27,845 nt of DNA from a virus (lineage: Duplodnaviria > Heunggongvirae > Uroviricota > Caudoviricetes). Both the position numbers and the translations under genes were made by a program. Positions 1 through 17,703 of this stretch are shown in pieces. How positions within the stretch are numbered: the stretch's first letter is position 1; each line of letters starts with the position of its first letter. The notes below the pieces were generated by a model. That model was given only the letters and a program-made list of their open reading frames with translations, was not told the DNA's origin and did no database searches. The stretch covers positions 1 through 27,845 of the IMG/VR virus record IMGVR_UViG_2802429221_000019. One strand, written 5' to 3'.

Positions 1-50
1 TCGTTTCGACGCAAAATTCAGCAAGCGATCAAAACTGGTGAAAAATATCG

Positions 51-1275: not shown

Positions 1276-1340
1276 TCTCTTTTAACTGATTTGTTGTGCG
1301 AGCATTATGTGCAGTTAACGGCTCACTAGCTAGTGAGAGT

Positions 1341-1378
1341 TCCAAAAAGAAACCCCGCAGTTTTTACGCTGCGGGGTT
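1341..1378 (-). terminator. intrinsic terminator (minus-strand sense) downstream of the hok-like gene
   Basis: perfect 10-bp stem AACCCCGCAG / CTGCGGGGTT (1351-1360 / 1369-1378) with 8-nt loop; on the minus strand it is followed by TCTTTTTGG. Confidence 0.5.
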
Positions 1379-1464
1379 GTTATTCATGCCTATGAGATAG
1401 GGTGCCTTATCGGCCTTACCCTAGCAACCGATTGACGGGGAGTTGCCTCCCCGTCGCGGTTTCC

Positions 1465-1605
1465 TTACTGCTTACACTGTAAGAACGCCGCAAACTCCGC
1501 TCCCCAGAAGCTCATCCGTATTTCACACAGCGAACCGTGCAGCATCCAGATGATGAGGATTACCGTCACGCAGAACGTGATGGCCGTAAGCGATTTTTGC
1601 GACAT
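1465..1605 (-). CDS. Hok/Gef-family-like type I toxin (46 aa: MSQKSLTAITFCVTVILIIWMLHGSLCEIRMSFWGAEFAAFLQCKQ)
   Basis: Translated by hand (below ORF-track length cutoff). N-terminal TM helix followed by SLCEIR and G.E.AAF, which resemble the Hok signature (..SLCEIR..G..EVAAF..). Strong SD AAGGAG 8 nt upstream, enclosed in an inverted repeat (AGCGC..CTCC..GGAG..GCGCT). Confidence 0.55.
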   Translation of the reverse strand: MSQKSLTAITFCVTVILIIWMLHGSLCEIRMSFWGAEFAAFLQCKQ

Positions 1606-1756
1606 AGCGCTTGCTCCTTTGTTGGAGAGGCGCTAACCTATCACTTGCTAGGTTGACGGGTTAGGGCCTCGGTTAAACAGAAATGTTTTCCGGGGCCTTT
1701 CCACATCCGGCCTTCGGGTATTCCCTCCGACCATCAGCCGAAAGGCACCCGCACGT

Positions 1757-1785
1757 AATCTATCGCTTTTTTGTTACTCCGGCAA
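1757..1785 (-). promoter_or_regulatory. candidate sigma70 promoter for the hok-like transcript
   Basis: minus-strand TTGCCG (1785-1780), 17-nt spacer, TAGATT (1762-1757); would give a leader of about 145 nt, as expected for hok-type mRNAs. Confidence 0.4.
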
Positions 1786-1794
1786 TTCTGCCTG

Positions 1795-2055
1795 TTAATT
1801 CTGAGGTAAAGGCAAACTCATCTGATTGTTTCCCCTGTGTGAAGCTGGCAGCTCATGCCACGGGATACCTTCTGATGAGTGAACGCCGGAGGCGTGTTTC
1901 GATGTGAATTTATGGAAAGCTTCCAGTGTTGAGAAGCATACGCCGCATTCCAGGTTGTTACACTGGTAATACTTTTGCCGCACGGTGTTTGAATCATTTT
2001 CCGGACGACTGGTGCGGATACGGGCAGATGCGCCACAAAGCGGACAACGGAACAT
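1795..2055 (-). CDS. ogr: Ogr/Delta-family zinc-finger late-gene transcription activator
   Basis: N-terminus MFRCPLCGASARIRTSR...YYQCNNLECGVCFS with CxxC...CxxxxC zinc finger as in P2 Ogr; SD AAGGAGG 5 nt upstream; immediately follows D as in P2. Confidence 0.85.
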   Translation of the reverse strand: MFRCPLCGASARIRTSRPENDSNTVRQKYYQCNNLECGVCFSTLEAFHKFTSKHASGVHSSEGIPWHELPASHRGNNQMSLPLPQN

Positions 2056-2097
2056 AGCGACCTCCTTTAACGTGGTGCTGCCGCTATTCTAAGTTGC

Positions 2098-3207
2098 TCA
2101 CTCTGTTTCCGCTATCCATTCCGGGATTTTTGCCTCAAGCTCAAGCTGCGTGGTAAAGCCGCTGTTATCAATGGTGTGCTCGGCTTTTGCAATAATCCAG
2201 TCCTGATTATCAATCTCGCTTTTAAATCCTGTTACCGTGCCATGCATTTCGGGGTAGAGTTCTGCTCGTCCACGTGCCAGCGTGATGGAGAATGATGCGG
2301 CTCCGCGTTGTAGTTGTTGCCACTTTGCCGCCGCTGCGCGTCTTGCTGCCTGCTCGTTCTGATAAGTCTTGCGTAACACAAACACATTGCCTTCCGCGCC
2401 TTCCATATAATCACCTTCACGGCTGCTGCTTTTCTCTTTTTTCGGTTTTGGCGGTTTGCGGCGTTTCACGCTGACTTTTTTCTTTTTCCCGTAATTAAGA
2501 TCAAGCCAGTAAGCGCGTACCCCCGTATACGCCTCGCGGTCAGCAATGCGGAACTGATGGCGATCGCCGCTGCTGCGGGTGATGGAGAACGATGGCAACG
2601 GCTGGCCCTGTGCGTTCACGCCACCGCCGGGCATGATGAATAACAGATTACCGCTTTTTACCGTGGTGATTGCGCCCAGCATTTCCGCCATGCGCGTAAG
2701 GAAGGACATGTCGCTTTCTTCAGTCTGGTCGGCGTGGTCGATTTCGATATCCATCAGCATTTCGCTGATTTGCGGTTTCAGACCGTACCGATGAGCGATG
2801 GCGGATACCACGCGCTCAACGGTCACATCATGCCAGGACACTTCACGTTTAACGTTAAATTCATCCCGAAAATCTGCGCTTCTGGCTGAAACAGTCAGCC
2901 TGTCCGGCGGTCCTTCGTGTGCGATTTCATCAACAATGTAAGACCCTTTTTCTGTCAGCGGTTCGCCTTTCCAGCCAATGAGAACCGTCAGGCACGCGCC
3001 CCGTGGTGGAAGCTGCAACTGACCATCCGCATCATCCAGCGTAATGGTGAGCTGGTCTGCCTCAAATCCCCGGTTGTCGGTCAGCGACAGGCTCATCAGG
3101 CGCTCTGCCACGCCGGACAGCGTTTTACCCTCCGCGAGAATATCAAAATCCGGCATTTTCACGGGGTCTGTGCTCTGACTGAGCAATTGCATGGTGGTAT
3201 CGGTCAT
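2098..3207 (-). CDS. D: tail protein D (late control D family)
   Basis: ORF-track frame 2098..3339; start chosen at ATG 3207 (MTDTTMQLL...) with SD GGGAGGGAG upstream. P2 gpD-like in size and sequence; contains a Lys-rich insertion KKKKVSVKRRKPPKPKKEK. Confidence 0.85.
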   Translation of the reverse strand: MTDTTMQLLSQSTDPVKMPDFDILAEGKTLSGVAERLMSLSLTDNRGFEADQLTITLDDADGQLQLPPRGACLTVLIGWKGEPLTEKGSYIVDEIAHEGPPDRLTVSARSADFRDEFNVKREVSWHDVTVERVVSAIAHRYGLKPQISEMLMDIEIDHADQTEESDMSFLTRMAEMLGAITTVKSGNLLFIMPGGGVNAQGQPLPSFSITRSSGDRHQFRIADREAYTGVRAYWLDLNYGKKKKVSVKRRKPPKPKKEKSSSREGDYMEGAEGNVFVLRKTYQNEQAARRAAAAKWQQLQRGAASFSITLARGRAELYPEMHGTVTGFKSEIDNQDWIIAKAEHTIDNSGFTTQLELEAKIPEWIAETE

Positions 3208-3364
3208 CTGCTCCCTCCCTGTGCGGCATGGTCGCATGTGTGTGCGGGCGGGGTTACTGCTTTTTGTTGTCGCCGGGCGGCAAGAACGGCGCAGGGGTGA
3301 GATTACGCGCGTGGTGGGTGATGATTGTTGCCGAATCATTTAACGGATACAAGGGGCTGAAGCT

Positions 3365-4549
3365 ATGAGTGAAACTCGTTTTCATGGTGCCCGTGTTACG
3401 GAAAATACCGACCTGGTAACAGCGATTAACGATGTTGATTCCAGCGTTATCGGTATCGTGGCAACGGCGGATGATGCGGACGCGAAGCTGTTCCCGCTGA
3501 ACAAGCCCACACTGCTGACCCGCGTCAATGACGTGCTGGGAAAATGCGGAACAACGGGGACGCTTTATCGTGTGCTTAAGGCCATCGCAGACCAGGTGAG
3601 CACAAAGGTGATCGTCGTTCGCGTGGCTGAACACAAAGAAGAAGACGGAAAGACGCAGGATCAACTGGTTATCGGTGGTTCTGAGGATGACGGCAGCTAT
3701 ACGGGGATGTATGCGCTGCTTGTTGCAGAGCAGGATGAAAGCATCGGATACCGTCCGCGTATTCTGGCCGCGCCGGAGCTGGACACGGAGGCGGTGACAA
3801 AATCCCTGTGCGTGATTGCGGGTAAACTGCGCGCGTTTGTGTATGCCTCATGTCACGGCTGTAACACGATGGCTGAAGCGATTACCTACCGCCAGAAATT
3901 CAACGAACGTGAAGTGATGCTCTTGTGGCCGGACTTCATCGCCTACAACACGAAAAGTGGCGAAAACGAAACGTTCCCCGCGCCTGCCTATGCGTGCGGC
4001 CTTCGTGCGTACATTGACCATGAGCAGGGCTGGCACAAATCGCTGTCCAACGTTCCGGTTAAAAATGTGCTGGGGATGTCCAGGCATGTGTTCTGGTCGT
4101 TACAGGCCGAAGACAGCGATGCCAACAGCCTCAACAACAAAGAAATCACGACCATTATTCGTCGCAACGGGTTCCGCTTCTGGGGCAACCGCACACCGGA
4201 AACGAACGCCTACATCTTTGAGGTGTATACCCGAACCGCACAGGTGCTGGCTGATTCAATTGCGGAAGCGCAGTTTGAAACCATCGACAGTCCACTGACG
4301 CCTGCGAACGTGAAGGATGTTATCAGTGCCATCAGGGCAAAACTGGATTCACTGGTTACTGCCGGGAAACTGATTGGCGCGGAGTGCTGGTATGACGTGG
4401 TGGATAACAGCACCACGGATTTACGTCAGGGGCGTGTGCGTATTCGCTACAAATATACGCCCGTTCCGCCACTGGAAGACATGGAGCTTTACCAGACGTT
4501 TACTGATGAATACTTTGAACCCGCATTTGCGGTGTTGGGAGGTGCCTGA
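3365..4549 (+). CDS. FI: contractile tail sheath protein
   Basis: 394 aa; conserved segments FPLNKP, GFRFWGNRT, YTPVPPLE as in P2 gpFI; SD AAGGGG upstream. Confidence 0.9.
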   Translation: MSETRFHGARVTENTDLVTAINDVDSSVIGIVATADDADAKLFPLNKPTLLTRVNDVLGKCGTTGTLYRVLKAIADQVSTKVIVVRVAEHKEEDGKTQDQLVIGGSEDDGSYTGMYALLVAEQDESIGYRPRILAAPELDTEAVTKSLCVIAGKLRAFVYASCHGCNTMAEAITYRQKFNEREVMLLWPDFIAYNTKSGENETFPAPAYACGLRAYIDHEQGWHKSLSNVPVKNVLGMSRHVFWSLQAEDSDANSLNNKEITTIIRRNGFRFWGNRTPETNAYIFEVYTRTAQVLADSIAEAQFETIDSPLTPANVKDVISAIRAKLDSLVTAGKLIGAECWYDVVDNSTTDLRQGRVRIRYKYTPVPPLEDMELYQTFTDEYFEPAFAVLGGA

Positions 4550-5061
4550 TGGCTGTGCCAAAACATCTTCGCTTTTTTACGCTGTTTGTGGATGGTGAAA
4601 ACGAAGTGGGTAAGGTGACGTCCGTCACTCTGCCTAAGCTGACGCGCAAAACCGACAGCTACCGGGGTGGTGGCATGATGGGGGCGGTAAGTATTGATCT
4701 CGGTCTGGACGACTCCGCGCTTGATGCGAGCTTTGTCATGGGGGGCGCAGTTCGTGAGCTGTTCCTTAAGTATGGCGGCACGATTGACGGCACGCTGCTG
4801 CGTTTTGCGGGTGAATACTACACCGATGCAGAAAGCGACCTGTATGAAGTCGAAATGCGCGGACGTGTGACGGAAATTGATATGGGGGAAGCCAAACAGG
4901 GCGAAGCCACATCACACACTTACGCCATTAAAAACACCTACTACAAGCTGAGTGTTAACGATCGCCCGTTGTGGGAGATTGACCTGCTGAACTTCATTTA
5001 CCGGAAGGACGGCAAGGACATTGCGCCCGATCGCATCCGTTCCGCGCTTGGGCTTGGCTGA
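4549..5061 (+). CDS. FII: tail tube protein
   Basis: 170 aa; ATG overlaps the FI stop (TGATG); size and position as for P2 gpFII. Confidence 0.88.
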   Translation: MAVPKHLRFFTLFVDGENEVGKVTSVTLPKLTRKTDSYRGGGMMGAVSIDLGLDDSALDASFVMGGAVRELFLKYGGTIDGTLLRFAGEYYTDAESDLYEVEMRGRVTEIDMGEAKQGEATSHTYAIKNTYYKLSVNDRPLWEIDLLNFIYRKDGKDIAPDRIRSALGLG

Positions 5062-5116
5062 TAAGTAATATGCAGGCGGCGCAGTGCGTCGCCTCTGACT
5101 GAAAAGGAGACCACTG

Positions 5117-5491
5117 ATGAAAAACATCGATACTGAAACCCAGAATAACACCGTGGCGGATGATGTGACGGCAGATGAGGATATGGCTGTCGAACGTGGT
5201 GTAAAACTTTCCCGGCCAATTGAGCGTGGCGGCGAAAAAATCACGTATGTGGAGATCACCGGGGCTATTGAGCAGGCTGGATCCCTGCGAGGTTTGTCGC
5301 TGTCTGATGTGCTGAATCTGAAAGCGGATACCATGTTCACGCTGTTGCCTCGCGTGACTTCGCCACGACTGGATGAAGTGATGATTAAAAAAATGTCGTC
5401 ACGCGATTTTATTCAGTTGTGCGCTGTGGCTGTAAATTTTATGAGCGAGCCAGACTCTGGCGCGAAGAGCGTGCAGGAGACGGCAGCGTAA
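5117..5491 (+). CDS. E: tail assembly chaperone E
   Basis: 124 aa between tail tube and tape-measure genes; SD AAGGAG 7 nt upstream; overlapping -1 frame ORF (E') continues into the T start region. Confidence 0.7.
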   Translation: MKNIDTETQNNTVADDVTADEDMAVERGVKLSRPIERGGEKITYVEITGAIEQAGSLRGLSLSDVLNLKADTMFTLLPRVTSPRLDEVMIKKMSSRDFIQLCAVAVNFMSEPDSGAKSVQETAA

Positions 5492-5655
5492 TCACCCTGG
5501 TGTGCTTTGAGCACATCGAAGATCTGGTGGCGGATATTGCCGCCATTTTTAACTGGTCGCCCGCCGAAATCTTCATGATGACGCCCGGCGAAGTGGTTAG
5601 CTGGCGTGAGCGGGCGGCACTTCGCAGCGGGAATGCAGACAATGAAGACTCTTGA
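5117..5655 (+). CDS. E+E' tail chaperone produced by programmed -1 frameshift (predicted)
   Basis: -1 frame is open from 5389 to 5655; slippery heptamer A AAT TTT at 5434-5440 in the E frame; analogous to P2 E/E+E' and lambda G/GT. Confidence 0.45.
5434..5440 (+). promoter_or_regulatory. candidate -1 ribosomal frameshift heptamer AAATTTT
   Basis: X XXY YYZ pattern in the zero frame of E inside the E/E' overlap; an alternative A7 run at 5387-5393 is less favourably placed. Confidence 0.4.
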
Positions 5656-8449
5656 TATCCGGGTCGCTTTCAGCGCCGTTGACAGGCTGACCCGGCCTGC
5701 CGAAAACGCCCGCCGCCTGATGGGGCAGTTTGGTGACTCCATCCAGCGAACGCAGGGGGCGATCAAAAATCTCGAGCGTCAGGCGCGTTCATTTGAGCGC
5801 GCCCGTGACGCTGTCAGTAAAGCGGATGCGGGCATCGTAAAAGCACGACGCCAGCTTAACGCCCTTAATCAGTTACAACGCACGGGTACAGTGCTCAGCG
5901 AAAAACAGCAAAAGCTGATGCAGCAGTTAAGCACCCGGCTTGAACGCCTGAATGAATCGCGCACACGGGAAATTCAGAAAATGCGGGAACTTGGCGGAGA
6001 GCTGAAACGCCACGGCATTTCCCTGACAGGCAGCGATAACACCATCCAGCAGGCCATCAGACGCACCGAACAGTACAACAACCAGCTTGAACGCGAACGG
6101 CAGGCGCTTGCGCGTGTAACGCGGGCGCGTGAGCGGTATTCGCGCGCGCAGGAAACAGCGGGAAAACTGAAAACAGGTGGTGCGCTGGCAATTGGTGCGG
6201 CAGCGGCGGGCGGCTATGCTGCCGGGCGTTTTTTGCAGCCTGCGATCGGGTTCGGGAAAGAGATGTCCCGCGTTCAGGCACTGACGCGAATCGACCAGAA
6301 CAGCCCGCAGTTTAAGGTGCTGCGTGAGCAGGCGTTAAAACTTGGCTCTGAAACGCAGTTCACCGCAGGCGATGCCGCCAGTGGACAGGCATTTCTTGCA
6401 ATGGCTGGCTTCACTCCGCAGGCCATTCAGGCTGCGCTTCCCGGCGTACTGAGCATGGCAACGGCTGGCGGTATGGATCTCGGCGAGACGGCAGATATTG
6501 GCTCAAATATCCTGACGCAGTTCGGCCTTTCTGCTGACCAGATGGACCGGGTCGGTGACACACTCACCGCAGCGTTTACCCGTACCAACACTGACCTTCG
6601 CGCACTGGGCGAAACCATGAAATATGCAGGTCCGGTGGCGGGTAAGCTGGGAATATCGCTGGAGCAGGCCGCAGCGATGGCGGGCGTACTGGCGAATATG
6701 GGCATCAGAGGGAGTGATGCCGGGACGGCAATGCGTGCCAGCCTGGCTCGTCTGGCATCACCGCCAAAGGCAGCGGCAGAAGCGCTGAAAGAGCTGGGCG
6801 TGTCCGTCTCGGATGCCGGGGGCAAAATGCGCCCGATGGAAGATCTGCTGGCTGACCTTTATAAAGCTACCCGCAAATACGGGGAAGTTGACCGGGTATC
6901 CTTCTTTAAGGACATCGCCGGGGAAGAGGCTTTCACATCGTTTATGGCACTCGTTGATGCGGCGGGTGACGGTTCCTTACCCAAACTGAGAAAAGAACTT
7001 GAGGGCGCACGCGGTGAGGCTGAACGCACGGCAAAGGTTATGGCCGACAACCTTGATGGCGACCTGAAAAATCTCGACAGCGCATGGGAAGGTCTTCGTA
7101 TTCGCATCAGTGATCTGGTTGACGGTTCGCTGCGTTCTGTCACGCAGTGGCTAACGCGGGTGGTCTCAAAAGTGACGGCACTGGCGCAGGCCCATCCTGT
7201 ACTGACGCGCCAGCTACTGATTGCAGGCGGTGCGCTGCTGGCAGTGACTGCAACCGTAGGCTCGTTGTCGCTTGCTCTTGGTGTGCTTGCTGGCCCACTG
7301 GCAAAACTGCGTCTTGGTTTTTCCCTCCTGACCGGATCAATGAATGCTGTCAGGCTCCTGCCTGCACTATGGGGAATGGTGACGGGTTCCGTTTCGTTAC
7401 TGGGGGGCGCTATCGGGGCGCTGTTCAGCCCGGTCGGATTGATTGCTGCTGCGTTTGTGGCTGCGGCAGTTCTCATCTGGAAATACTGGGAACCCATCAA
7501 GGCGTTTTATGCCGGGGTGTTCAGCGGGATTATGGAGCGGCTGGCCCCGTTACGCGAAACCTTTGAACGGTTTGGTCCTGTTTTTGACGCAATCGGAAGC
7601 GGGATCAGCCAGGTGTTTAACTGGTTTAAATCGCTGTTGTCACCGATGGAGTCCAGCAAGGAAACGCTGGATAAATGCACAAGTGCTGGCGAGGTATTCG
7701 GTAACGTTCTTGGCGGTGCGTTACAGCTTGTCCTGACGCCTGCAAAAATGCTGCTGGATACGTTGGCGTGGATACTTGAAAAACTCGGTGTTCTTCCGGA
7801 TGAAGCGGAAAGGGCGCGCAAGAAAATCGAAGACGCGCAGCGTGCGGCCATTCTTCAGGACAAGGTTGCTCTGTTTCAGGGAGACATTGCGAAAATCAAT
7901 CCGCCGAAGCCTGTGGAAAATGGCAATGGCACCGGAGGTGATAACCCCAAAGACAACAAACCGCTCACAGACAGCAATACCGGTACGCTACGCAGACTCA
8001 GCAAAATTGCTGATAACACAGGTAAGCTGGTTGATGAGACGAAAAAACGCATTGGCCCCGGCGATATTGTCTTTAAGAACCTGCCCCGCGCACTTGCCGT
8101 TCGTGGGGAGTGGCAGGAGCGGAAGATTGCGCAGGTCAGTAAGCCTGCCCCCGCAATTAATATCACACCTGTGGTTCCGGCTCCGCTGCCTCCGGCGCTG
8201 GTCCCTGTTGTTGCGGCCAGCTCCCGCCCGGTGGCAGAGGCCATACGATCGCCAGTGGCATCAGTTCCTGCAACTTCCCGTAACCGGGAGCCTGTTGCCT
8301 CCGGATTTGGCGGTGAAATTCATGTTCATCTGCATAACGTTGTTACGCAGAATCCCCGCGAACTGGCGAAACTGGTCGGTGAAATGGTCAGGGCAGAAAT
8401 GGAACGGCGCGCCCGTGCCGGGCGTGGCAGTTTTTACGATAAAGATTGA
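5606..8449 (+). CDS. T: tail tape measure protein
   Basis: 947-aa ORF (GTG at 5606; possible ATG starts at 5633 or 5642); coiled-coil N-terminus, Gly/Ala-rich hydrophobic core, position between chaperone and U. Confidence 0.85.
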   Translation: MSGRHFAAGMQTMKTLDIRVAFSAVDRLTRPAENARRLMGQFGDSIQRTQGAIKNLERQARSFERARDAVSKADAGIVKARRQLNALNQLQRTGTVLSEKQQKLMQQLSTRLERLNESRTREIQKMRELGGELKRHGISLTGSDNTIQQAIRRTEQYNNQLERERQALARVTRARERYSRAQETAGKLKTGGALAIGAAAAGGYAAGRFLQPAIGFGKEMSRVQALTRIDQNSPQFKVLREQALKLGSETQFTAGDAASGQAFLAMAGFTPQAIQAALPGVLSMATAGGMDLGETADIGSNILTQFGLSADQMDRVGDTLTAAFTRTNTDLRALGETMKYAGPVAGKLGISLEQAAAMAGVLANMGIRGSDAGTAMRASLARLASPPKAAAEALKELGVSVSDAGGKMRPMEDLLADLYKATRKYGEVDRVSFFKDIAGEEAFTSFMALVDAAGDGSLPKLRKELEGARGEAERTAKVMADNLDGDLKNLDSAWEGLRIRISDLVDGSLRSVTQWLTRVVSKVTALAQAHPVLTRQLLIAGGALLAVTATVGSLSLALGVLAGPLAKLRLGFSLLTGSMNAVRLLPALWGMVTGSVSLLGGAIGALFSPVGLIAAAFVAAAVLIWKYWEPIKAFYAGVFSGIMERLAPLRETFERFGPVFDAIGSGISQVFNWFKSLLSPMESSKETLDKCTSAGEVFGNVLGGALQLVLTPAKMLLDTLAWILEKLGVLPDEAERARKKIEDAQRAAILQDKVALFQGDIAKINPPKPVENGNGTGGDNPKDNKPLTDSNTGTLRRLSKIADNTGKLVDETKKRIGPGDIVFKNLPRALAVRGEWQERKIAQVSKPAPAINITPVVPAPLPPALVPVVAASSRPVAEAIRSPVASVPATSRNREPVASGFGGEIHVHLHNVVTQNPRELAKLVGEMVRAEMERRARAGRGSFYDKD

Positions 8450-8455
8450 GGAGTC

Positions 8456-8950
8456 ATGGCCATGATGATGATCTACGGCATGTTTGTTTTTGAGTTGCGC
8501 ACATTGCCGCATCAGCAGTTACAGCAAAATAAAAGCTGGCGACATGTGAAAAATGAACGCGTTAACCGTTCAGCAAGCTGGCAGTATATCGGGGCAGGCG
8601 ATGATCGTATTGTTCTTTCTGGTGTGCTTTATCCTGAAATTACAGGTGGCGAAGTGTCGCTGTCGCTGCTGACCACGCAGGCGTATACAGGACGCCCCTG
8701 GCCTCTTATTGATGGCGTCGGGCAGATTTACGGCATGTATGTCCTGACCGAAACGAATACGACCCGTTCCGAGTTTGATCGCTACGGTAAGGCGAAAAAG
8801 ATAGAATTTTCACTGACCCTTGAACGCTGTGATGAGGATTTGCGGGAGCGCCTGCAATCCTCATCGTTCAGCGATATGCTGTCCGGCTTCAAAGATAAGG
8901 TCACATCATCTCTTAACAGCGCGGCCAGCTCCGTTAAAGGGTTGTTTTGA
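8456..8950 (+). CDS. U: tail protein U
   Basis: 164 aa; SD GAGGAG upstream; P2 gpU-like (MxxxGxFVF...LPxQxLQQ..SWRH). Confidence 0.82.
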   Translation: MAMMMIYGMFVFELRTLPHQQLQQNKSWRHVKNERVNRSASWQYIGAGDDRIVLSGVLYPEITGGEVSLSLLTTQAYTGRPWPLIDGVGQIYGMYVLTETNTTRSEFDRYGKAKKIEFSLTLERCDEDLRERLQSSSFSDMLSGFKDKVTSSLNSAASSVKGLF

Positions 8951-8958
8951 CTTAATAC

Positions 8959-8988
8959 AAAACCGCTAATAAACATATTGGCGGTTTT
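8959..8988. terminator. bidirectional hairpin terminator between convergent U and G
   Basis: AAAACCGC ... GCGGTTTT inverted repeat with an inner AATA/TATT helix; A/T runs on both sides. Confidence 0.45.
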
Positions 8989-9009
8989 GTTCCTTAAATC
9001 ATCTTGCCT

Positions 9010-9585
9010 TTACACTAATTCTGGCCATTCGATATCAGGGGCATTTTCCGGCTGAACACGGTTAAGCAATACCCGGTATTTTTTCCATTTTGTCAGACTT
9101 AATTTTTCTTCTTCTGTAGCTATATCCAAATCGACAGCATCCTGCAGCGTGGCAATAATTTCACCTGCATATGCAATCAGCTCTTTCTTCTGAGACTCCG
9201 CCGCTCTGACAAGCGCATCACGTTCTGCATTCTCATCATTCACCCACGCATTTCCGTCCCATTTCTGATAATCCCCCTCCGGGGAAATAGCTGTCACGTC
9301 TGGAGGTAATACGCCAAGTTCAGAAATATAAATGGCTGCTCCTGTTTTCGTTTCGTAGACGGTCTTTCCGCGATGGTCTTCCATCAGTTCCCATTTCATT
9401 TCATCTGCATTGAAAACGGCTGCATAACCAGCAGGAATATCAGGTGGTGCAATATCTGTACTGTTTGCAGGCAGGCCAGTATACGGCGGAATATATGCAT
9501 CACTTTCGCCAATAAACTCATTGGTTCCATTAAGTAAATTGAAAACGCGGATAGTTTGTGCTTCTGCACTCATTCTGAAAGCCAT
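9010..9585 (-). CDS. G: tail fiber assembly protein
   Basis: 191 aa, immediately downstream of tail fiber gene with overlapping stop/start (TAATG); typical Tfa sequence. Confidence 0.8.
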
Positions 9586-12200
9586 TATGCAAGCCTCACA
9601 ATATAGTTAAATGCGATGTTTTTGACGGTGTTTTCGGTATTACCCGTAGCATTTACCGTGATGGTGTGCCCGTGCGCACCTAATGCTACAGTGTGTGCAT
9701 GGGCACCAATACCTACAGTGTGGTTATGCTGACCAATATCCACCGTATGGGCGTGCGCTCCGGCTGTGCTGGACACCTGATTGTTTCCTGAAGCCTGTAC
9801 ACGCTGTTTTCCACCGACAGAGTCGCCGCCATAAACACCACCGACAGTGTGCGTATGATTGCCCGTATTGTTCGTTGATTTTGTGCCATGGTTAAACGTA
9901 CTGACTGTCTTCGTGCCGTAATCAAATGAACTGGTCGTTTTCGTCCCTAAATCCGTATTTGACGCACTGGCGCTGTGAGTATGCGATTTAATCCCGTCCT
10001 GTTCCTGTGACAATACAGCACGTCCACTGGCGGGTTTGCCCTTGATTGTCCAGCCGCGCATATCTGGAATAACACCAGAAGGATAGGCAATAGCCAGTTT
10101 AGGATATGCTGCCTTATCAAACGTCTGCCCCTGCATAATTGCATAGCCTGCAGGTGGTGTATCTGATGGCCACGGCAGCGGAACACCTGGCGGAAACGCT
10201 TCAATATTTGCCGAGCCGTCAAATTTTACGCCGTTAATTGTCCTTGCCGTTTTCAGCTTTGTTGCTGTAGCCGCATTGCCGGACAGTTCGCCTGAAAGAC
10301 CACCGCTGAATGTCTGTTTCGCCGCCCATGTCTGAGCTTCGTCAATAATTGGCACACGTCTTGTCGTGATCGTGCGGCTTCCCGGATTTCCTGAAATACG
10401 CACCATAAAAAAGCGGTAGTTCGCTTTACTTACAGTGCTGCGCCATACATGCATTGAGCGCCCCGTACCGGAATCATCACTCGGACCAACTGCGATGTTT
10501 ATCAGGTTGCCATCAATGACGCCCCAGTCCATACCGTCGGGAATGTTGGTCATGTTATCAAGCCGAACGGTTATCAGACTGCCCGGCACAAAGTCGTAGG
10601 TCTGCCAGTCCAGGCTGGTGAGCTTTGCCACAGCACCGCCGATACCCAGATTCAGGGGAAGTGAATACGAGGTGTAGACTTCCCGCCATTCGCTCCACGA
10701 ACTGCCGGTATAGACGCGCTCAAACGTGCGACCTTTCGTTGTCGTTCCTGTCCCTGTAGTGGTATAGCGTTGCAATACGGCAACGTAATCAAAACGTCTG
10801 ATAACCTCTAACACCCCTATTAGTGTTGCACCAGATGGATCCAGCAATGGACCATTGGTCGCTTTACCCGTCACACTGTAAATACCAGGGTCGGTTAGAT
10901 CATTCAAATCACCGTCATAAAAGCTGCTTGCAGTCTGGCTGCCGATTCTTAGCCATGGTTCCCACTGCGGATTTGATGCATCCCAGTTTGCAGCAAGGCA
11001 GCGGACATACATGTTCCCACGGCGAGTGGTATAACGCTGGGTATAACTGAATCCACCGCCTTTCAGAACTTCAAGCACCCCCTGCGCGTAACTACCAGCT
11101 TCGGGATAGTGCAACGCAAGAGAAGCTAACGTACTGGAACTATTTCTCCATGTACCCAGATTATCCTCTCCGGCCAGAAAATCGAGATCCATGCTATCAT
11201 CCAGCGTTCTGGCCGTCCCCTGAACGTTACGCCATACGCTCCACGGACCATCTTTGCCGTTCCATTTAGCCGTCAGGTGGCGAATATAAGTATTTCCATT
11301 GCGAACGGTGTAACGCTGTGTTCCGTTAAAATTTCCTGCTGCAAATACTTCCAGGACACCAACGGCATTCTCTTCCGGGAAGTGTTTGGCTATCTGTGCA
11401 TTAGTCGAAGTGCCTTTTGACCATGTACCCAGATAAGCTTTAACGGGACCAAATGTATTCAGATCAGCATCAACCGGCATTTCGCCATTGTTTTTCATAA
11501 ACGTCAGGCTGGTAACGCCAACATTGTCCAGAAAAGCGCCCTTATCTGGAATATCGTCACCGTTCTGGTCTTTCTGCAGACGTTTCTCAGCATTGTCATA
11601 GGCTGCTTTTACTGCCTTTGGCGTTGCCGCCAGCTTTTCACTGGTGCTGTTTGTTGCACTGCTTAACTGGGTAAAACCTTTTTCTGTCAGCGTGGCGTCA
11701 GGATGGCGGCGGGACTGCTCATGCTCTGCGATTTTGTCATCGACGTAATCCTGCGTCGCCATCACTGTGCTGGCATCAATACTCAGCTCAACGGATGCCA
11801 CGTTACTGACAATAATGACCATGCGGCAGGTCTGCGCACGTCCGGAGCCTTCAGCCAGTTCAGGCTTATAGCTTTCTGCCATGTTGGCGACCGCAATCAG
11901 TGTTCCGGCATCGTCATACAGACCAAGTTCACGCATCCAGAAGCCGCCCACTTCTGGCGGAACAACCAGTTCAGCCACGATATAGTTTTTATTCTTATTA
12001 TCCACGCTGACTTTATTCAGGGCATGACGCCAGACCTCATGCACCAGCTTCGTCTGACCGGCATCCGGCACCGGCAATTTGCCATTACCGTCACCCACGG
12101 CCATTGCAGACAGGTTTACTTTTTTCCCGCCGGGAACGGTGGCGGCTGCCAGCTTCGCGGCTCCGGCAGTAGTGATAACGGTTTTAAATTTCGTGCTCAT
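9585..12200 (-). CDS. H: tail fiber protein with C-terminal His-x-His repeat receptor-binding region
   Basis: 871 aa; N-terminus [20 protein letters not shown] typical of P2 gpH; C-terminus carries repeated HTV/GAHAHTV motifs. Confidence 0.85.
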
Positions 12201-12210
12201 TGTTTCTCAC

Positions 12211-12738
12211 TTATCCGGGATAAACAGTAATAACATCACCATCACAGACCACACCGCCTGTATACAGATAGCCGGGAATGTCCTGGATAATGTTCAGACC
12301 GATAAGGTGGCGACTTGCGGGTTTGGCATCGGCAATCAGCCGTTCCATTTCCAGATACATTTCCTCGGTCACACCACTGTCCAGCGTGCCAACATCAACC
12401 TTGAATGTTCCGGGTTCGCCGTCGAACTCCCACCACTCAGACACGCGAATGAGGTATCCCAGCGGTTCAATGGCTCGTCGCAGGGCGCTGATGGTTCCTT
12501 TGTGTCGGTGTATCAGCCATGCATCACGAATCACCTGTCGCTTTGTCTCTTCCGGCCAGTTGCGATCCCAGCGGTCAACGGAAAACGCCCAGGCGAGATA
12601 AGGCAGCAGATGTACCGGGCAGGTGTCCGGCGACCACAGCGTGTTGAGGTCTACCGGAATGTCTGTAATGCGTGTCCCGACGGCTTCGGCACAACGCATG
12701 AAATTGCTGGCTGATGGCGGTAACAGTGAATTACTCAT
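12211..12738 (-). CDS. I: baseplate assembly protein I
   Basis: ORF-track frame 12211..12771; start chosen at ATG 12738 (MSNSLLPP...), 4 nt after the J stop. Confidence 0.8.
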   Translation of the reverse strand: MSNSLLPPSASNFMRCAEAVGTRITDIPVDLNTLWSPDTCPVHLLPYLAWAFSVDRWDRNWPEETKRQVIRDAWLIHRHKGTISALRRAIEPLGYLIRVSEWWEFDGEPGTFKVDVGTLDSGVTEEMYLEMERLIADAKPASRHLIGLNIIQDIPGYLYTGGVVCDGDVITVYPG

Positions 12739-13627
12739 TACGCCCACCTTCGCTGATGGTGAATGACTCACAGCGCGCCGCCTGTATGTCGCTGATGGCC
12801 ATATTCTGTGTGGGTTCGATTATCTCCACGCGTTGCACACCGTGCACATGCAGTGCGGCAGCAATGGCGGACAACGCCACATCCTGACCGATAAGCCCCT
12901 GCTCAGCCAGCCACTTCCTGAACGACGATTCAGCCGCAGCCAGAATAGGTTCGGATTCCGGGCCGGGGTAGAAGTACAGTTTTGCATTCAGCCGCCATGT
13001 CACGATTCTGGCGCTCTGTACGGTCAGGCGGTCGGCCACCGGGCGGGTATCCTCTGCATTCAGAACGGCGCGAACGGTATTAAGCAACGCCTCCGTTGCT
13101 GTGCCGTCGCCCTCAGTGGACAGAATGGAAACCGTCACGTTGGCCGGAGACGGGCTGATGGCCCGCGCGTCGCGTACCAGACCGCTGGCGCTGCGTGCAA
13201 AATACTCGTATGCACCTGACGGGCCAGCAACACTCAGACCGTCATACGCCCGTTGCGCCCGCAGTCTCAGCGAGGTGTCACTTTCCATCACCGCGTCGGT
13301 GGTATCCGTTGCCGGAGTGATAACCAGGCGCTTTGTGTTCATATTGCCCGCGAGGTTGTCCAGGTCTGTCCCGGCGCTGTGGCTTAGCATGCAGGCGCGT
13401 GCACCCTCATTGACCCGCTGGCGTAACAGCATTTCACGAAACGCTGTTGTCTGGGCGATAACGTTCAGGGGCTCCGATTCCAGCTCCAGCGCGGCGGAGA
13501 CGGCTTCACGCTGTTCGGCGGGATAAGCCGCAATCATCATGGCCTTTGTATCAGCCAGAATTGCCTCAAAATCAGGCTCCGCGATGATGGCGGGTTCCGG
13601 TAACTGGGAAAGGTCAACGGCAGGCAT
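12731..13627 (-). CDS. J: baseplate assembly protein J
   Basis: 298 aa; SD GAGGGAG upstream; P2 gpJ-like. Confidence 0.85.
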   Translation of the reverse strand: MPAVDLSQLPEPAIIAEPDFEAILADTKAMMIAAYPAEQREAVSAALELESEPLNVIAQTTAFREMLLRQRVNEGARACMLSHSAGTDLDNLAGNMNTKRLVITPATDTTDAVMESDTSLRLRAQRAYDGLSVAGPSGAYEYFARSASGLVRDARAISPSPANVTVSILSTEGDGTATEALLNTVRAVLNAEDTRPVADRLTVQSARIVTWRLNAKLYFYPGPESEPILAAAESSFRKWLAEQGLIGQDVALSAIAAALHVHGVQRVEIIEPTQNMAISDIQAARCESFTISEGGRNE

Positions 13628-13629
13628 GA

Positions 13630-13980
13630 TTACTCCCTCAGCGTGATGGTTAATTCAACATTTTGCATGGTCTGCATGACAGTGCCCGACAACGTCACCC
13701 CGGCGCGGCCTCCCGCTTTCCAGACAACGTCGATGGCATCCAGGGCAATGCGGGGTTCCCATCGTGTCAGCGCAATCACGGCAGCACTCATGCATTGCAG
13801 ACGCGTGGTGTTATTCATGGGTTCGTCAATCAAATCAGGCACAAGGCTGCCATATTCCCGTCGCATAACCCGGCTTGCCAGCGGGGTGGTCAGGATGTCC
13901 CTGACTGACTGTTTCAGGTGCTCCATATCGTTCAGGTTTCCCGTCCCGTCCGGATTCATTCCTGTGTAGCGGGTTGTCAC
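13630..13980 (-). CDS. W: baseplate protein W
   Basis: 116 aa; GTG start with SD AGGAGG 6 nt upstream; MTTRYTGMN resembles the P2 gpW N-terminus. Confidence 0.8.
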   Translation of the reverse strand: MTTRYTGMNPDGTGNLNDMEHLKQSVRDILTTPLASRVMRREYGSLVPDLIDEPMNNTTRLQCMSAAVIALTRWEPRIALDAIDVVWKAGGRAGVTLSGTVMQTMQNVELTITLRE

Positions 13981-14558
13981 TGCGGGCCTCCTGTCGAATC
14001 GCTGCCGCCTTTCACGCCACCGTGTGTATGCGTATGCACGGTAATGCCGTTTGAGGTGAAGCTGCCGCCGCTGTGCGTGATATTGCCGCTCATCTTTCCC
14101 CCTTTTGTGACGTCAAGCGTCGCTGTTCTCAGAAGGTTTGTGCATTCCACGACGGGCGTATCCAGTGTCACGCTGACGGATGCCTGCAGGGTGGCTGTTT
14201 TCATGCCGCTGGCGCTCAGTGCGCCTGCGTCCGCGTCGTAGCGGAACACCGCGCCGTCCGGCGCGCTGATCACGATTTCTTTCAGGCTTTTGCCGGGGGC
14301 CGGATTGGCATCACTCCACAGGCTGCCAATTATCATGGCGGTTTCCGGGTTGCCGCCAATGCAGGCAATTACCACCTGTTCGCCTGGTGATGGCGGCAGC
14401 CACACATTGAAGGCTCCCGCGCGCGTGGTGTTCCAGCGCAGCCAGCCTGTTTCCAGTTCGCCGCTGCGAACGCGCACGCGCCAGGACTTCTCATCAACTT
14501 CAGAGATGATCCCGGTGCGGATGATATTGCTCAGCAGTCGCATGAGTTCTGCGCTCAC
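13977..14558 (-). CDS. V: baseplate spike/assembly protein V
   Basis: 193 aa; GTG start overlapping the S stop, SD GGAGG upstream; P2 gpV-like. Confidence 0.8.
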   Translation of the reverse strand: MSAELMRLLSNIIRTGIISEVDEKSWRVRVRSGELETGWLRWNTTRAGAFNVWLPPSPGEQVVIACIGGNPETAMIIGSLWSDANPAPGKSLKEIVISAPDGAVFRYDADAGALSASGMKTATLQASVSVTLDTPVVECTNLLRTATLDVTKGGKMSGNITHSGGSFTSNGITVHTHTHGGVKGGSDSTGGPQ

Positions 14559-15190
14559 CGTACAGCCTCCGCAATCCGGCCCAGCACCGTGTTATAAATC
14601 AGGCGTTCATCTGCCTGACTGATACCCAGCAGCTCACGTACCGGGTAATCGGTGAAAATGCCCGGCGCAACCTGATCGCGCTCGCCGAACTGATGAACGC
14701 GTGCAATACGTGCGGCCACGCCGCTGTAACCCACCGTCACACCGGAGGCATCCGCGCGGGCTTTCAGGTAACGGGTGGTGCGCAGTTTCACGAACATGGG
14801 GACGTGCTTTGTGCTGTCCTGGTTGATACGCCGGGTGCGTATTTCCAGAAAACGGTCGATGTCATCCCGGTAAAACGTGCGGATATTGTTTTTATCCTCA
14901 TCCCACCCGGTAATGGTTCGCCCGTATTTCCCCGTGTCGTGATGCCAGTTTTTCAGCGTGCGTGTTTCGTTATTCCAGATAAAGCGAATGCGCTCCTGTA
15001 TCCGGGTTACGCGGCGTCTGCGTGGTGTCCACGCGGTCCCGTCCGGCGCTTTCTGTGACCGGATACGCGCCTGCTGGGCGCGGCGTAAATCCTGTGCCAG
15101 CTTTCTGGCGATGTTATTGATGGCCTGCTGATTCAGGCTGTCGCGGATGGCCTCAAAGGTTTCATCCACGCGGATGAATGCCTTATCCAT
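14555..15190 (-). CDS. S: tail completion / virion morphogenesis protein (S-like, extended)
   Basis: 211 aa in the position of P2 S between R and V; longer than the roughly 150 aa I recall for P2 gpS; assignment mainly by synteny. Confidence 0.55.
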   Translation of the reverse strand: MDKAFIRVDETFEAIRDSLNQQAINNIARKLAQDLRRAQQARIRSQKAPDGTAWTPRRRRVTRIQERIRFIWNNETRTLKNWHHDTGKYGRTITGWDEDKNNIRTFYRDDIDRFLEIRTRRINQDSTKHVPMFVKLRTTRYLKARADASGVTVGYSGVAARIARVHQFGERDQVAPGIFTDYPVRELLGISQADERLIYNTVLGRIAEAVR

Positions 15191-15650
15191 CGCTTTCCCC
15201 CCACGTCACATCCTGGAATACATGCGACCAGTCGCCTTCGGAAGATGGCAGGCGGGGTTTTGGCTCCGGAAGGTGTTCTGCCTGCAGTGTGCCCTGACTG
15301 CTGCGCGTGATGCGAACACGTTCCCGCAGGGGAAGCATAAACAGGAGATCGGCGCTGTCATCGTCATTAATAACGGCAGAGAATTTGATGTCCTGATTAC
15401 GCTCCGGATTGAGCAACAACTGTGGCTGATTTTCTGATAACCACGCCAGTAACGGCAGCGTGAGGTCGTCCAGCTCCCCGGCGTAATCCATGACAAACAT
15501 CACCATCTGATAGCGGTAAACAAACGAGGGCGTTTCTCCGGTCGTTTCAATGTTGCCGCTCTCCACGAAAATGGTGAATTTTTCCGGGTTGGCCTGACAC
15601 CATCGGCATGAACGGGTCATGGCTTCACGCAGGGAATCAGTTTTCAGCAT
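15183..15650 (-). CDS. R: tail completion protein R
   Basis: 155 aa, same size as P2 gpR; MLK.DSLR...ENQP motifs. Confidence 0.75.
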   Translation of the reverse strand: MLKTDSLREAMTRSCRWCQANPEKFTIFVESGNIETTGETPSFVYRYQMVMFVMDYAGELDDLTLPLLAWLSENQPQLLLNPERNQDIKFSAVINDDDSADLLFMLPLRERVRITRSSQGTLQAEHLPEPKPRLPSSEGDWSHVFQDVTWGESDG

Positions 15651-15927
15651 GGTTGTTGTCCTCGTTGTTCAGTCGTTGCAGCCTGCGCTGTTCCAGTAAT
15701 TCAATGGCCCGTTTATCTGCGTTACAGGTTTCCAGTGCATCCAGAAGGTGGTCGCCCCATATCCCGAGGTTTCCCCATGTGGGAGCATCAGGGAAGGGGG
15801 GCGGCGTTACCGGTATGGTCAGCGTCTGCGGTATAAGCCGGACTGACGGCGCTGGCCGTGGCGCGTTCTGCGTGCCTGCGCAACCTGTCAGTAAAACGAG
15901 CGTCAGGCAAAGCGTGGGCGCATTCAT
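15637..15927 (-). CDS. lysC: o-spanin (Rz1-like outer-membrane lipoprotein, LysC-type), overlapping lysB in another frame
   Basis: start at ATG 15927 gives MNAPTLCLTLVLLTGC with lipobox LLTGC; Pro-rich mature part; begins inside lysB and extends into R, as in the P2 lysB/lysC architecture. Confidence 0.6.
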   Translation of the reverse strand: MNAPTLCLTLVLLTGCAGTQNAPRPAPSVRLIPQTLTIPVTPPPFPDAPTWGNLGIWGDHLLDALETCNADKRAIELLEQRRLQRLNNEDNNHAEN

Positions 15928-16195
15928 CTTTTGCAATATCGTTGCGTAGCTGTTCACGTCTGGCCTCTCCGTCCTGATTGCGTTGCTGATTTTCCGCGCG
16001 GAGTTGTGCCAGCACCTGCTGCATATCCTGTACTCCGGCGCTGATGATATTCAGTGTGTCGACGGTACTTTTCAGGGTGCTGGCCTGCGCTTCGTTTCTG
16101 GCGTTCTCCCGGCCCAGCGACCACGACAGACGCATGGATGTTCCCCATGCGGCAATCAGAAGGAAAGCGACACCCAGCGTGGGCCAGAGCTTCAT
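15788..16195 (-). CDS. lysB: i-spanin (Rz-like, LysB-type)
   Basis: start at ATG 16195 (MKLWPTLGVAFLLIAAW N-terminal TM helix) overlaps the endolysin stop (ATGA); coiled-coil-rich periplasmic part. Confidence 0.6.
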   Translation of the reverse strand: MKLWPTLGVAFLLIAAWGTSMRLSWSLGRENARNEAQASTLKSTVDTLNIISAGVQDMQQVLAQLRAENQQRNQDGEARREQLRNDIAKDECAHALPDARFTDRLRRHAERATASAVSPAYTADADHTGNAAPLP

Positions 16196-16584
16196 GCCGG
16201 ATAGGCTCCGTGTGGTAACTGAAAATGCGGTCCGTCTTTCAGGGTCTTCCAGTCGCCGCCCCATTCCACCGGAATATTCAGCTCCCGGCTGGCCTGTCTG
16301 AATGCTGCTGCGATTTTTTCGTACAGCGGCCATTCCCATGACACCTGGCTGCCGACATAAGCCACAACATCCACGGCATGCCCCGTAAGGTGGCGGCTGT
16401 TCATGGTCTGGCTCTTACCCGTGGCCACAAGTTGCTTCTGGCGGTAACGGCTACGCAATCCTTCGGTGATACCAAAATCCACTTCCGAGATTTCCAGTGC
16501 CCGTCGGGTCACTTTCACCAGATCAGGGTTTACGCCCTGCAAATTCTTTTCGCTCCGGCTGCTGAATTTAAATGTGTTGCTCAT
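16192..16584 (-). CDS. endolysin, peptidase M15-type (L-alanyl-D-glutamate / D-Ala-D-Ala peptidase-like)
   Basis: 130 aa with H..D...H zinc-peptidase-like residues; SD AAGGAG upstream; occupies the P2 K position but is not a P2-type lysozyme. Confidence 0.65.
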   Translation of the reverse strand: MSNTFKFSSRSEKNLQGVNPDLVKVTRRALEISEVDFGITEGLRSRYRQKQLVATGKSQTMNSRHLTGHAVDVVAYVGSQVSWEWPLYEKIAAAFRQASRELNIPVEWGGDWKTLKDGPHFQLPHGAYPA

Positions 16585-16904
16585 TCGTCCTTCTCCTTCA
16601 CCCTGCGATTAAAGGCCGCAATAACCTTGTCGCGTGCTTTCTCTGCGCCCATAAAACCGATTGATGCGCCGATAAACGTCACGGCATCTTCAGGAAAACC
16701 GAAGAAGCGCAACGACCCGGCCACGGCCATGGCAAGAACGCCGCACGCCAGCGATCCCGTTACGGTCTGAACCAGTGTTCGTCCGTCATAAAGACTCATC
16801 AGCGCGGAAATGCTGACCGCCGCGCCTACTGCATACACCGTTGGCAGGTGGTCAAAGATCCACGCAATAACCTGCTCTGTGATCCCTGTTTGAATGGTGC
16901 TCAC
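16581..16904 (-). CDS. holin (class I, three TMDs, charged C-terminus)
   Basis: GTG start at 16904 with SD GGGGGGAG upstream; three hydrophobic helices and C-terminal EKARDKVIAAFNRRVKEKDE; between X and endolysin as P2 Y. Confidence 0.65.
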   Translation of the reverse strand: MSTIQTGITEQVIAWIFDHLPTVYAVGAAVSISALMSLYDGRTLVQTVTGSLACGVLAMAVAGSLRFFGFPEDAVTFIGASIGFMGAEKARDKVIAAFNRRVKEKDE

Positions 16905-16906
16905 TG

Positions 16907-17107
16907 CTACTCCCCCCACAACTGAATCATTTCTCGTTTCTTCTTCTCCGGCTCCGGCATCTCCACTTCCTGCCCGGCGTCCAGAAATACCTGCTGACAG
17001 AGTCCGGGGTTGGCATCCAGCACCTTTTCGGTGACGCCCTGCGTCGTGCCGTAGTACCGGAAACAGAGCGAATCCACGGTGTCGCCTTCCAGTGCCTTCA
17101 CTTTCAT
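16907..17107 (-). CDS. X: tail protein X
   Basis: start at ATG 17107 overlapping the L stop (TGATG); 66 aa MKVKALEGDTVDSLCFRYYG... matches P2 gpX size and N-terminus. Confidence 0.75.
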   Translation of the reverse strand: MKVKALEGDTVDSLCFRYYGTTQGVTEKVLDANPGLCQQVFLDAGQEVEMPEPEKKKREMIQLWGE

Positions 17108-17601: not shown

Positions 17602-17703
17602 GGGGTTCACTCCTGAAAAAAATCGGGCGGTGGGTGCGCGGTGTAAACGGTCACGGAGTCAAACCGGAACACCGTGCACGCCGCCCGCTGACGGGGTCAG
17701 TCG

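Follow-up and report, generated by a model that had tools for sequence, protein, structure and literature searches.

In the reference record of phage P2 (Peduovirus P2, NC_001895), V-W-J-I-H-G, fun(Z) and FI-FII-E-E'-T-U-D-ogr all lie on one strand. FI-FII-E-T-U-D-ogr form a single co-oriented operon behind G, and the cargo (fun/Z) adjoins the end of G. The late-promoter consensus is TGT-N12-ACA (PMC3931495). In the P2 record, pP and pO share a single annotated activator site, and their transcription starts lie +/-55.5 nt from the middle of it. The centre of the pF site is 82.5 nt away from the FI start codon, and pV is a separate promoter. Stenotrophomonas phage Smp131 is another P2-like phage whose tail operons are rearranged relative to P2, and a single palindromic TGT-N12-ACA site is reported to serve its divergent PP'/PO' pair (PMC3931495). 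Phage P88 (Xuanwuvirus P88, NC_026014 / KP063541) is an inducible, plaque-forming myovirus (PMC5285337), and Citrobacter phage phiSM (OR565851) is released spontaneously, can be induced, forms plaques and has lysogenised E. coli K-12 (PMC6456863).

We analysed a 27,845-nt stretch of DNA, hereafter the window, which is an E. coli prophage integrated beside the glyW-cysT-leuZ tRNA cluster. The window reaches its end in the cargo region past Q, with the integrase, repressor and replication genes lying outside it. An Rfam scan of the window returned three tRNAs only. The open reading frame list and PHROG matches placed FI, FII, E, T and U on the plus strand (3365-8950), with the O-to-G genes, ogr and D (2098-3207) on the minus strand. 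These assignments agree with the earlier note, which had stated that FI to U are opposite in strand to D, ogr and V-G; its further statement, that inverting about 3208-9009 once would bring back the P2 order, held when compared with the P2 reference record. The window thus lacks the canonical Peduovirus order, in which FI-FII-E-T-U-D are co-oriented in one operon after G, and has the order ogr-D(-) / FI-FII-E-T-U(+) / G...O(-) / P-Q(+) of a P88-like clade. Its late gene set is that of P2, and it likewise encodes an Ogr-type activator and has sites of the TGT-N12-ACA type; most tail proteins are 44-55% identical to those of P2.

On the minus strand, the ogr/Delta-type late activator gene (1795-2055; phrog_603, transcriptional regulator) lies downstream of D and is co-oriented with it. 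Its 86-aa product carries CPLC...CNNLEC, the C4 zinc-finger pattern (CX2C...CX4C) of Ogr/Delta-type activators, and its homologues in P88 and phiSM match it at 99-100% identity. The tail/baseplate hub protein gpD (369 aa, 2098-3207; phrog_52, tail protein, E = 3.5e-166) is not part of the inverted block and is 99% identical to P88 gpD and 52% identical to P2 gpD. The mechanical D reading frame extends to 3339, but the gene itself begins with the ATG at 3207, which follows a GGGAGGG sequence; given this start, the D/FI spacer had been correctly placed at 3208-3364.

The plus-strand block begins with the tail sheath gene FI (3365-4549; phrog_23, E = 3.1e-127; 46% identical to P2 FI) and the tail tube gene FII (4549-5061; phrog_55), annotated in relatives as the major tail tube protein. 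The tail assembly chaperones follow (phrog_103), with E at 5117-5491 and its E' frameshift extension in the region to 5655; a GpE-family reading frame is annotated at the corresponding place in P88 and an APEC prophage. The tape measure gene T (5642-8449; 935 aa; phrog_28 and phrog_17114) starts at the ATG at 5642, not at 5606, and at 2808 nt has the same length as in P88. The final gene of the block is the tail protein gene U (8456-8950; phrog_76, E = 5.4e-75). Convergent with U are the tail fibre assembly gene G (9010-9585, minus strand; phrog_105) and the tail fibre gene H (9585-12200, minus strand; phrog_295/381), the terminal genes of a long leftward O-to-G operon. Beyond them, the baseplate, lysis and head genes continue on the minus strand up to O, and P and Q are then on the plus strand. 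The S and V genes overlap, leaving no spacer where P2 has its separate pV promoter. All late genes yielded full-length family matches, and the window is apparently an intact member of its clade.

We then compared the window with named phages. P88 has the same order and strands, with ogr-D on the minus strand, FI-FII-E-E'-T-U on the plus strand and the fibre, baseplate, lysis and head genes on the minus strand. Nucleotide identity of the window to this type phage is high across the structural region, at 95.2% over 1500-8986 and 96.9% over 12172-23390. The same arrangement is found in phiSM (96.1% identity from ogr to U) and in Xuanwuvirus P884B11 (NC_049391; 95.7%). Window positions 1500-8988 gave a single collinear alignment at 94-96% identity to P88, P884B11, phiSM, PhiR44_2 and Chuche, and their annotation gives the same strands. 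The differences lie beyond U. P88 carries a DNA invertase and an alternative set of fibre and assembly genes between U and the fibre genes, where the window has a hairpin alone; in phiSM and P884B11, too, the U/G junction is occupied by an invertase together with variable fibre cargo, and these phages have other hosts or attachment sites. The C-terminus of H and the G protein of the window are of Peduovirus (P2) type, G being 37% identical to P88 G, and from 9019 on the DNA matches Peduovirus-type fibre genes (P24A7b, 91.8%; STYP1, 85.2%), not P88. The rearrangement of Smp131 is a different one (V/J operon membership), and its gpD is distant (35% identical).

Gene order was next surveyed in 170 related loci. 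The inversion was present in all 134 loci whose gpD is more than about 60% identical to that of the window, and the canonical order in all 36 more distant loci, including P2, Fels-2-like phages and phiCTX. Loci from IMG/VR with gpD 65-99% identical were inverted in 80 of 80 cases, and those from species-representative genomes (61-98%) in 48 of 48. Every locus with gpD 47-54% identical had the canonical order, as did P2, Cartapus, SEN8, YenM_42.18 and phiCTX, and inside the clade the inverted order held down to 56% gpD identity. In neighbour-joining trees of thinned taxa rooted on phiCTX, the inverted loci were monophyletic for both gpD (34/34) and gpFI (32/32). Moreover, the D/FI junction was contiguous at no less than 95% identity in 1358 of 5426 complete E. 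coli genomes, showing that about a quarter of them have P88-type prophages.

These results indicate that the inverted order is fixed in a monophyletic clade, comprising Xuanwuvirus/P88-like phages and relatives, across many Enterobacterales genera. The FI-U inversion relative to P2 is ordinary for this lineage; an explicit description of it was not found in the searchable literature. We are highly confident that the flipped sheath-to-gpU block is real and is the normal, anciently fixed order of a large P2-like group that includes plaque-forming P88; because of this, the inversion is neither a defect nor an assembly error. Among the three options left by the earlier note, the lineage-specific arrangement is the one that survives, with every clade locus inverted. 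That note had also held that the same arrangement in related functional phages would speak against its concern, and P88 and phiSM both share the order and form plaques. P2 is the wrong gene-order template for some P2-like prophages, and the 'inversion' of a P88-type prophage relative to P2 should not be counted as damage or misassembly.

The earlier note had further suggested that D was left without its operon promoter. D and FI are indeed divergent, as it stated, over a short intergenic region of 157 bp (156-157 bp in all close relatives). This region contains an Ogr-type activator site and, to its left, the breakpoint at the left end of the ancient inversion. The site, TGT-N12-AGA (TGTCGCCGGGCGGCAAGA), lies at 3268-3285 on the plus strand with its centre at 3276.5 and has one mismatch (AGA for ACA) in one half-site. 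Of 81 distinct D/FI spacers, 78 have a TGT-N12-A(C/G)A site whose centre lies 80-88 nt before the FI start codon. On the FI side, the predicted -10-like hexamer of pF (GATGAT, 3320-3325, plus strand) lies 44-49 nt from the site centre, with a predicted start at about 3332; this position keeps GATTAT, GATGAT or GAATAT across the clade and in canonical lineages. On the D side, a predicted leftward -10-like hexamer (GACCAT, 3228-3233, minus strand), with TG two bases upstream, lies at the same 44-49 nt from the centre, placing the predicted D start at about 3221 with a leader of only about 14 nt. When sequences were aligned on the site centre, an xA..AT element at 44-49 was conserved on the D side in 39 non-redundant sequences of the inverted clade and was missing from the equivalent side in 19 canonical-order sequences, which have the FI-side element only. 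A generic sigma-70/terminator scan of 1500-9700 found no promoter in the D/FI spacer, which is expected if the promoters are activator-dependent; the same scan also failed to list the hairpin at 8957-8990.

A second Ogr-type site (TGT-N12-AGA) lies at 20535-20552 on the plus strand in the divergent O/P spacer. On its P side TAATCT occupies +44..49, and position 20462, the likely start for O, agrees with the same promoter geometry. The motif TTTGTTGT-N9-GCMAGAAC occurs only in the D/FI and O/P spacers, a count that is circular because this common 25-nt motif was built from those two sequences themselves. The divergent pP/pO pair of P2 has the architecture proposed here for D/FI.

Based on these sequence comparisons, one ancestral inversion of the segment from pF to U produced the present order. 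The inverted segment brought pF and its palindromic Ogr site along, and D therefore lies divergently beside that site; D would thus have retained Ogr-dependent late expression through a new -10-like element located beyond the pF site. Late transcription would then consist of two divergent promoter pairs, P / O...G and D-ogr / FI...U, each arranged around a single palindromic Ogr-type site (TGT-N12-AGA), with about 55 bp from the site centre to each predicted start. We lean, by a modest degree, towards the reading that a new leftward late promoter, using the single palindromic Ogr site of pF, took control of D and of ogr behind it, and that the late regulon of the clade consists of two bidirectional sites with no separate pV. 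The suggestion that D lost its promoter is probably wrong in effect, given that D adjoins the Ogr site that moved with pF and that a -10-like element at the mirror distance is conserved in the clade. We found no description of a D/FI promoter arrangement with a shared Ogr site in the searchable literature. The conserved symmetric D/FI spacer offers a testable case of one Ogr site for two divergent late promoters and, if the model is true, a natural case in which a gene severed from its operon was rescued by co-opting a palindromic activator site.

A less probable but still plausible alternative is that the order is lineage-typical while D depends on a spacer promoter that does not need Ogr, or D and ogr are expressed from another start, so that the timing of D differs from that in P2. 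As a -10, the D-side hexamer of the window (GACCAT) is weak, and RNA polymerase alone could use a conserved TT at 21-22, with a spacer of 17 bp, as its -35. In addition, D is co-oriented with ogr, and P2 ogr has its own activator-independent promoter. However, the D-side element exactly mirrors the FI-side one in its distance from the palindromic site, an arrangement also seen in P2 pP/pO, and it is conserved specifically in the inverted clade; both points argue against this alternative.

As for the order itself, a recent inversion in this single prophage that split the F operon and left it tail-defective is very improbable. Such an event would account for the order being inverted relative to P2 and for D being parted from pF, but the same order extends through all 134 clade loci, down to 56% gpD identity, and a quarter of complete E. 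coli genomes; plaque-forming P88 and phiSM share it, and the tail genes are all full length. The option of a recent rearrangement making the prophage defective, raised in the earlier note, is effectively refuted by this clade-wide order and the full-length tail genes.

An assembly artefact at 3208-3364 and/or 8951-9009 has a negligible likelihood. The exact U/G joint (36 nt) had no match in the species-representative genome collection, and the identical joint is therefore absent from those species representatives. Among complete E. coli genomes, no contiguous high-identity match covered the U/G joint, and the best matches there had a serine O-acetyltransferase inserted between U and G. Since the exact joint is unmatched, its support comes from an independent, about 10% diverged genome (L025; 90% identical) and from 35 relatives with similar cargo-free junctions. 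L025 aligned to window 1333-9586 in one piece at 90.6% identity, spanning both junctions, and the left junction is contiguous in the 1358 complete genomes, so that the misassembly option was not borne out. Furthermore, the junctions have no repeats able to mislead an assembler. A search for inverted or direct repeats at the two junctions found none of meaning flanking the block, only the U/G hairpin and short matches at chance level. The weak ATNATTTAA-like similarity claimed at both junctions was itself no better than chance (the window has 3 matches where 1.13 are expected, and 10 of 100 shuffles reached that number), and its left copy sits within the FI leader, off any breakpoint.

Finally, a programmed reversible segment flipped by a phage DNA invertase is extremely unlikely: although P88-type relatives encode a Gin/Cin-like invertase right beside U, it targets their fibre genes and not FI-U, in the window neither 8951-9009 nor the reading frames scanned encode an invertase, the block has no bounding inverted repeats (the 9-mer similarity being due to chance), and the other orientation occurred in 0 of 134 clade loci. 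The invertase in question is reported to flip tail fibre segments in a P88-like prophage (bioRxiv 10.1101/2022.05.07.487787). A Gin/Cin/Hin-type invertible segment was rejected on both counts, an invertase with end sites and the presence of both orientations in relatives.

At the U/G junction, the earlier note had described only a terminator, and this was borne out by a strong hairpin at 8957-8990 in the gap between the convergent U and G genes (8951-9009). The hairpin has 15-nt arms that are 93% complementary, T-runs on both strands, and a folding energy (dG) of -21.7 kcal/mol (z = -8.6), and is probably a bidirectional terminator at which the two long convergent operons would end. Relatives often carry cargo at this junction, and its content varies among them; in the window the site is empty. 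Among relatives, the slot holds an invertase, an O-acetyltransferase or nothing, much like the Z/fun site of P2.

Genes were assigned by scanning the listed ORFs against PHROG and Pfam, which showed that the window carries a P2-like late region. The minus strand holds ogr (1795-2055) and gpD (2098-3207), followed on the plus strand by the FI sheath (3365-4549), FII tube (4549-5061), E/E' (5117-5655), T (5642-8449, with its start codon at 5642) and U (8456-8950). G (9010-9585), H (9585-12200) and then I, J, W, V, S, R, the lysis genes, L, M, N and O, up to about 20462/20495, are on the minus strand, and P (20617-22368) and Q (22368-23414) on the plus strand. In the reference record of P2, V-W-J-I-H-G, fun(Z) and FI-FII-E-E'-T-U-D-ogr follow one another on a single strand. 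Comparison of the window ORFs with this record confirmed the earlier note's claim that FI to U are inverted and that a single inversion of about 3208-9009 gives back the P2 order. Its limits for the D/FI spacer, 3208-3364, are also right, because D really begins with the ATG at 3207, which follows GGGAGGG; the mechanical ORF reaches 3339.

Positions 1500-8988 formed one collinear alignment, at 94-96% identity, with Citrobacter phage phiSM, Xuanwuvirus P884B11 and Escherichia phages 520873, PhiR44_2, P88 and Chuche. The annotated strands of P88 and phiSM match those of the window (FI to U run rightward, D and the fibre and baseplate genes leftward), and the remaining late region shares 96.9% identity with P88. 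IS100-family insertions inside the part matching 1500-8988 break up the alignment in Escherichia phages 520873 (NC_049344) and 503458 (NC_049341). Among 5426 complete E. coli genomes, 1358 matched an 801-nt probe spanning the D/FI junction contiguously at 95% identity or more, and two of these were looked at in detail. P88 is mitomycin C-induced, forms plaques and has been engineered via its lysogen (PMC5285337), and phiSM shows spontaneous release, plaques and lysogeny in K-12 strains (PMC6456863). Plaque-forming relatives thus share the gene order, which is what the earlier note had said would refute its idea and mark the order as ancestral for the lineage. The orientation of the block is not unusual for the lineage. 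Judged by its sequence, the window represents a typical E. coli prophage of the P88 type (Xuanwuvirus), differing from P88 mainly in having no invertase cassette and a P2-type H/G module. The arrangement has been present in public annotated genomes ever since P88 was deposited, and the literature searched contained no explicit discussion of the FI-U inversion.

A gpD alignment of the window, P2 and P88 was used to retrieve 80 IMG/VR loci and 80 further loci from one-genome-per-species contigs, and gene order was scored by tblastn with the window proteins as queries. In all 134 loci with gpD about 61-99% identical to that of the window, U-T-E-FII-FI were on one strand and D-ogr and V-W-J-I-H-G on the other, so that no clade member, like the window itself, has the canonical P2 order. 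Their hosts include Salmonella, Citrobacter, Klebsiella, Enterobacter, Kosakonia, Pantoea, Erwinia, Brenneria, Pectobacterium, Symbiopectobacterium, Serratia, Edwardsiella, Hafnia, Yersinia, Morganella, Providencia, Xenorhabdus and Photorhabdus. The canonical order was found in 36/36 loci with gpD 47-54% identical to the window, including P2, Elveevirus Cartapus, Felsduovirus SEN8, Firavirus YenM_42.18 and the Pseudomonas outgroup phiCTX. Among the scored loci, no gpD, FI, FII or U sequence had a nearest neighbour of the opposite arrangement, and phiCTX-rooted NJ trees recovered the inverted loci as monophyletic both for gpD, a gene outside the block (34/34), and for FI, a gene inside it (32/32). 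From the gpD split, the neighbours and these trees, we infer that the canonical order is the ancestral state and that the inversion arose once, long ago. T identity inside the inverted clade drops to 26%. One locus labelled Vagococcus sp. (NZ_JBQPOM010000071.1) has prophage proteins 96-100% identical to those of the window and is probably a contaminated or mislabelled assembly. In a related phage recorded as a linear Klebsiella "plasmid" (CP052639.1, 10009-13354) the sheath gene is split, with its N-terminal part divergent from D and its C-terminal part past D-ogr, in the same direction as the tube-to-U genes; the pattern resembles an additional inversion ending within FI, or an assembly error.

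In P2, the activator Ogr binds a TGT-N12-ACA dyad in the late promoters (PMC3931495). One annotated site in the P2 record is common to the divergent pP and pO, whose starts, mapped to 3016 and 3127, flank the dyad centre at ±55.5 nt. The D/FI spacer of the window contains a single dyad, TGT-N12-AGA at 3268-3285. Its centre and the FI ATG are 88.5 nt apart, compared with 82.5 nt in P2 pF, and these like distances suggest that pF moved along with the block. The dyad occurs at that position, with variable N12, in 78 of 81 distinct D/FI spacers. Spacers were aligned on the dyad centre, and information content from 39 non-redundant sequences revealed an xA..AT hexamer 44-49 nt from the centre on both sides: GATGAT, GATTAT or GAATAT on the FI side (window 3320-3325), and TG-n-(G/A)A(C/T)CAT behind a CG-rich run on the D side (GACCAT, window 3228-3233). 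The D ATG and GGAGG are about 70 nt from the centre. Among canonical-order spacers (19 non-redundant sequences), conservation was seen on the FI side only, the opposite side being without signal. A TGT-N12-AGA dyad recurs in the O/P spacer (20535-20552), with TAATCT at 44-49 nt toward P, and the likely O start at 20462 fits this geometry. S and V overlap by 4 nt (14555-14558), leaving no room for a separate P2-style pV, and O to G seems to form a single transcription unit about 11.4 kb long. On the favoured reading, late transcription would start from two bidirectional Ogr sites and D would keep a predicted promoter; the proposal that the inversion left D promoterless is probably incorrect, given the dyad and the D-side hexamer conserved in the clade. 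The GACCAT of the window is weak and the predicted D leader short, and an Ogr-independent promoter driving D is a reasonable, though less likely, alternative. The inversion is real yet ordinary, and its sole mildly new part is the putative shared-site promoter pair for D and FI. A perfect TGT-N12-ACA dyad with a GTTGT late-promoter flavour (TGTTGTGTCGCTGCGACA) lies at 24286-24303, between Q and the cargo genes. A sigma-70-like match on the minus strand (GTAACA-18-GATAAT, 9/12; 2206-2235), within the D 3' end and about 150 nt upstream of ogr, could be an activator-independent ogr promoter. The D-ogr gap is 42 nt in the window and 81 nt in P2.

Misassembly, which the earlier note had also raised, is very unlikely because L025, an independent genome about 10% diverged, aligned with window 1333-9586 in one piece spanning both junctions, though the exact 36-nt U/G joint had no match in species-representative genomes. 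A repeat search at both junctions found no inverted repeats bounding the block, and the suspected ATNATTTAA similarity there is at chance level, its left copy sitting within the FI leader. No invertase gene turned up between U and G or among the other window ORFs scanned, and the opposite FI-U orientation occurs in 0/134 clade loci, which in practice rules out a reversible switch.

At the U/G junction, P88-type homology ends at 8988 and Peduovirus-type G/H homology runs from 9019 (P24A7b 91.8%, STYP1 85.2%), indicating a mosaic tail fibre module with its apparent joint at the foot of a hairpin (8957-8990). H and G are 67% and 37% identical to the P88 proteins, but I-J-W-V are 89-100% identical. 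The G/H homology (9010-12200) is of Peduovirus or lambda-stf type. The hairpin (dG -21.7 kcal/mol, z = -8.6) is flanked by T-runs on both strands, which suggests a predicted terminator of both convergent operons. This junction is a cargo slot among relatives: P88, phiSM and the APEC E12053 prophage carry a DNA invertase with alternative fibre and assembly genes there, and O104:H4-type prophages a serine O-acetyltransferase. Cargo occupies 8251-10399, 15089-16830 and 7808-8380 in related loci L001, L003 and L004, respectively. Within the clade the gap varies between about 0 and 3900 nt, and 35 members have a window-like stop-to-stop gap below 200 nt. A second cargo position, between ogr and D, holds a TIR-domain protein gene in L003, the E. 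coli APEC E12053 prophage (7147-8061).

The left end of the window carries tRNA-Gly(GCC), tRNA-Cys(GCA) and tRNA-Leu(TAA) at 152-453, a glyW-cysT-leuZ type cluster, so this prophage end adjoins leuZ. Positions 1-1800 match leuZ-linked prophage ends of E. coli at 99.3% identity, with Hok/Gef and a hypothetical gene annotated there, and 324 genomes cover at least 80% of them; other relatives adjoin serS rather than leuZ. Beyond Q, at the P2 old/tin hotspot position, a minus-strand cargo pair of about 31% GC (24719-27279) encodes an AAA_15/AAA_21 ATPase (565 aa) and a D12 adenine methyltransferase (281 aa). The methyltransferase matches PADLOC PD-Lambda-5_B (E = 8.7e-122), and the pair is probably a PD-lambda-5-like defence system.
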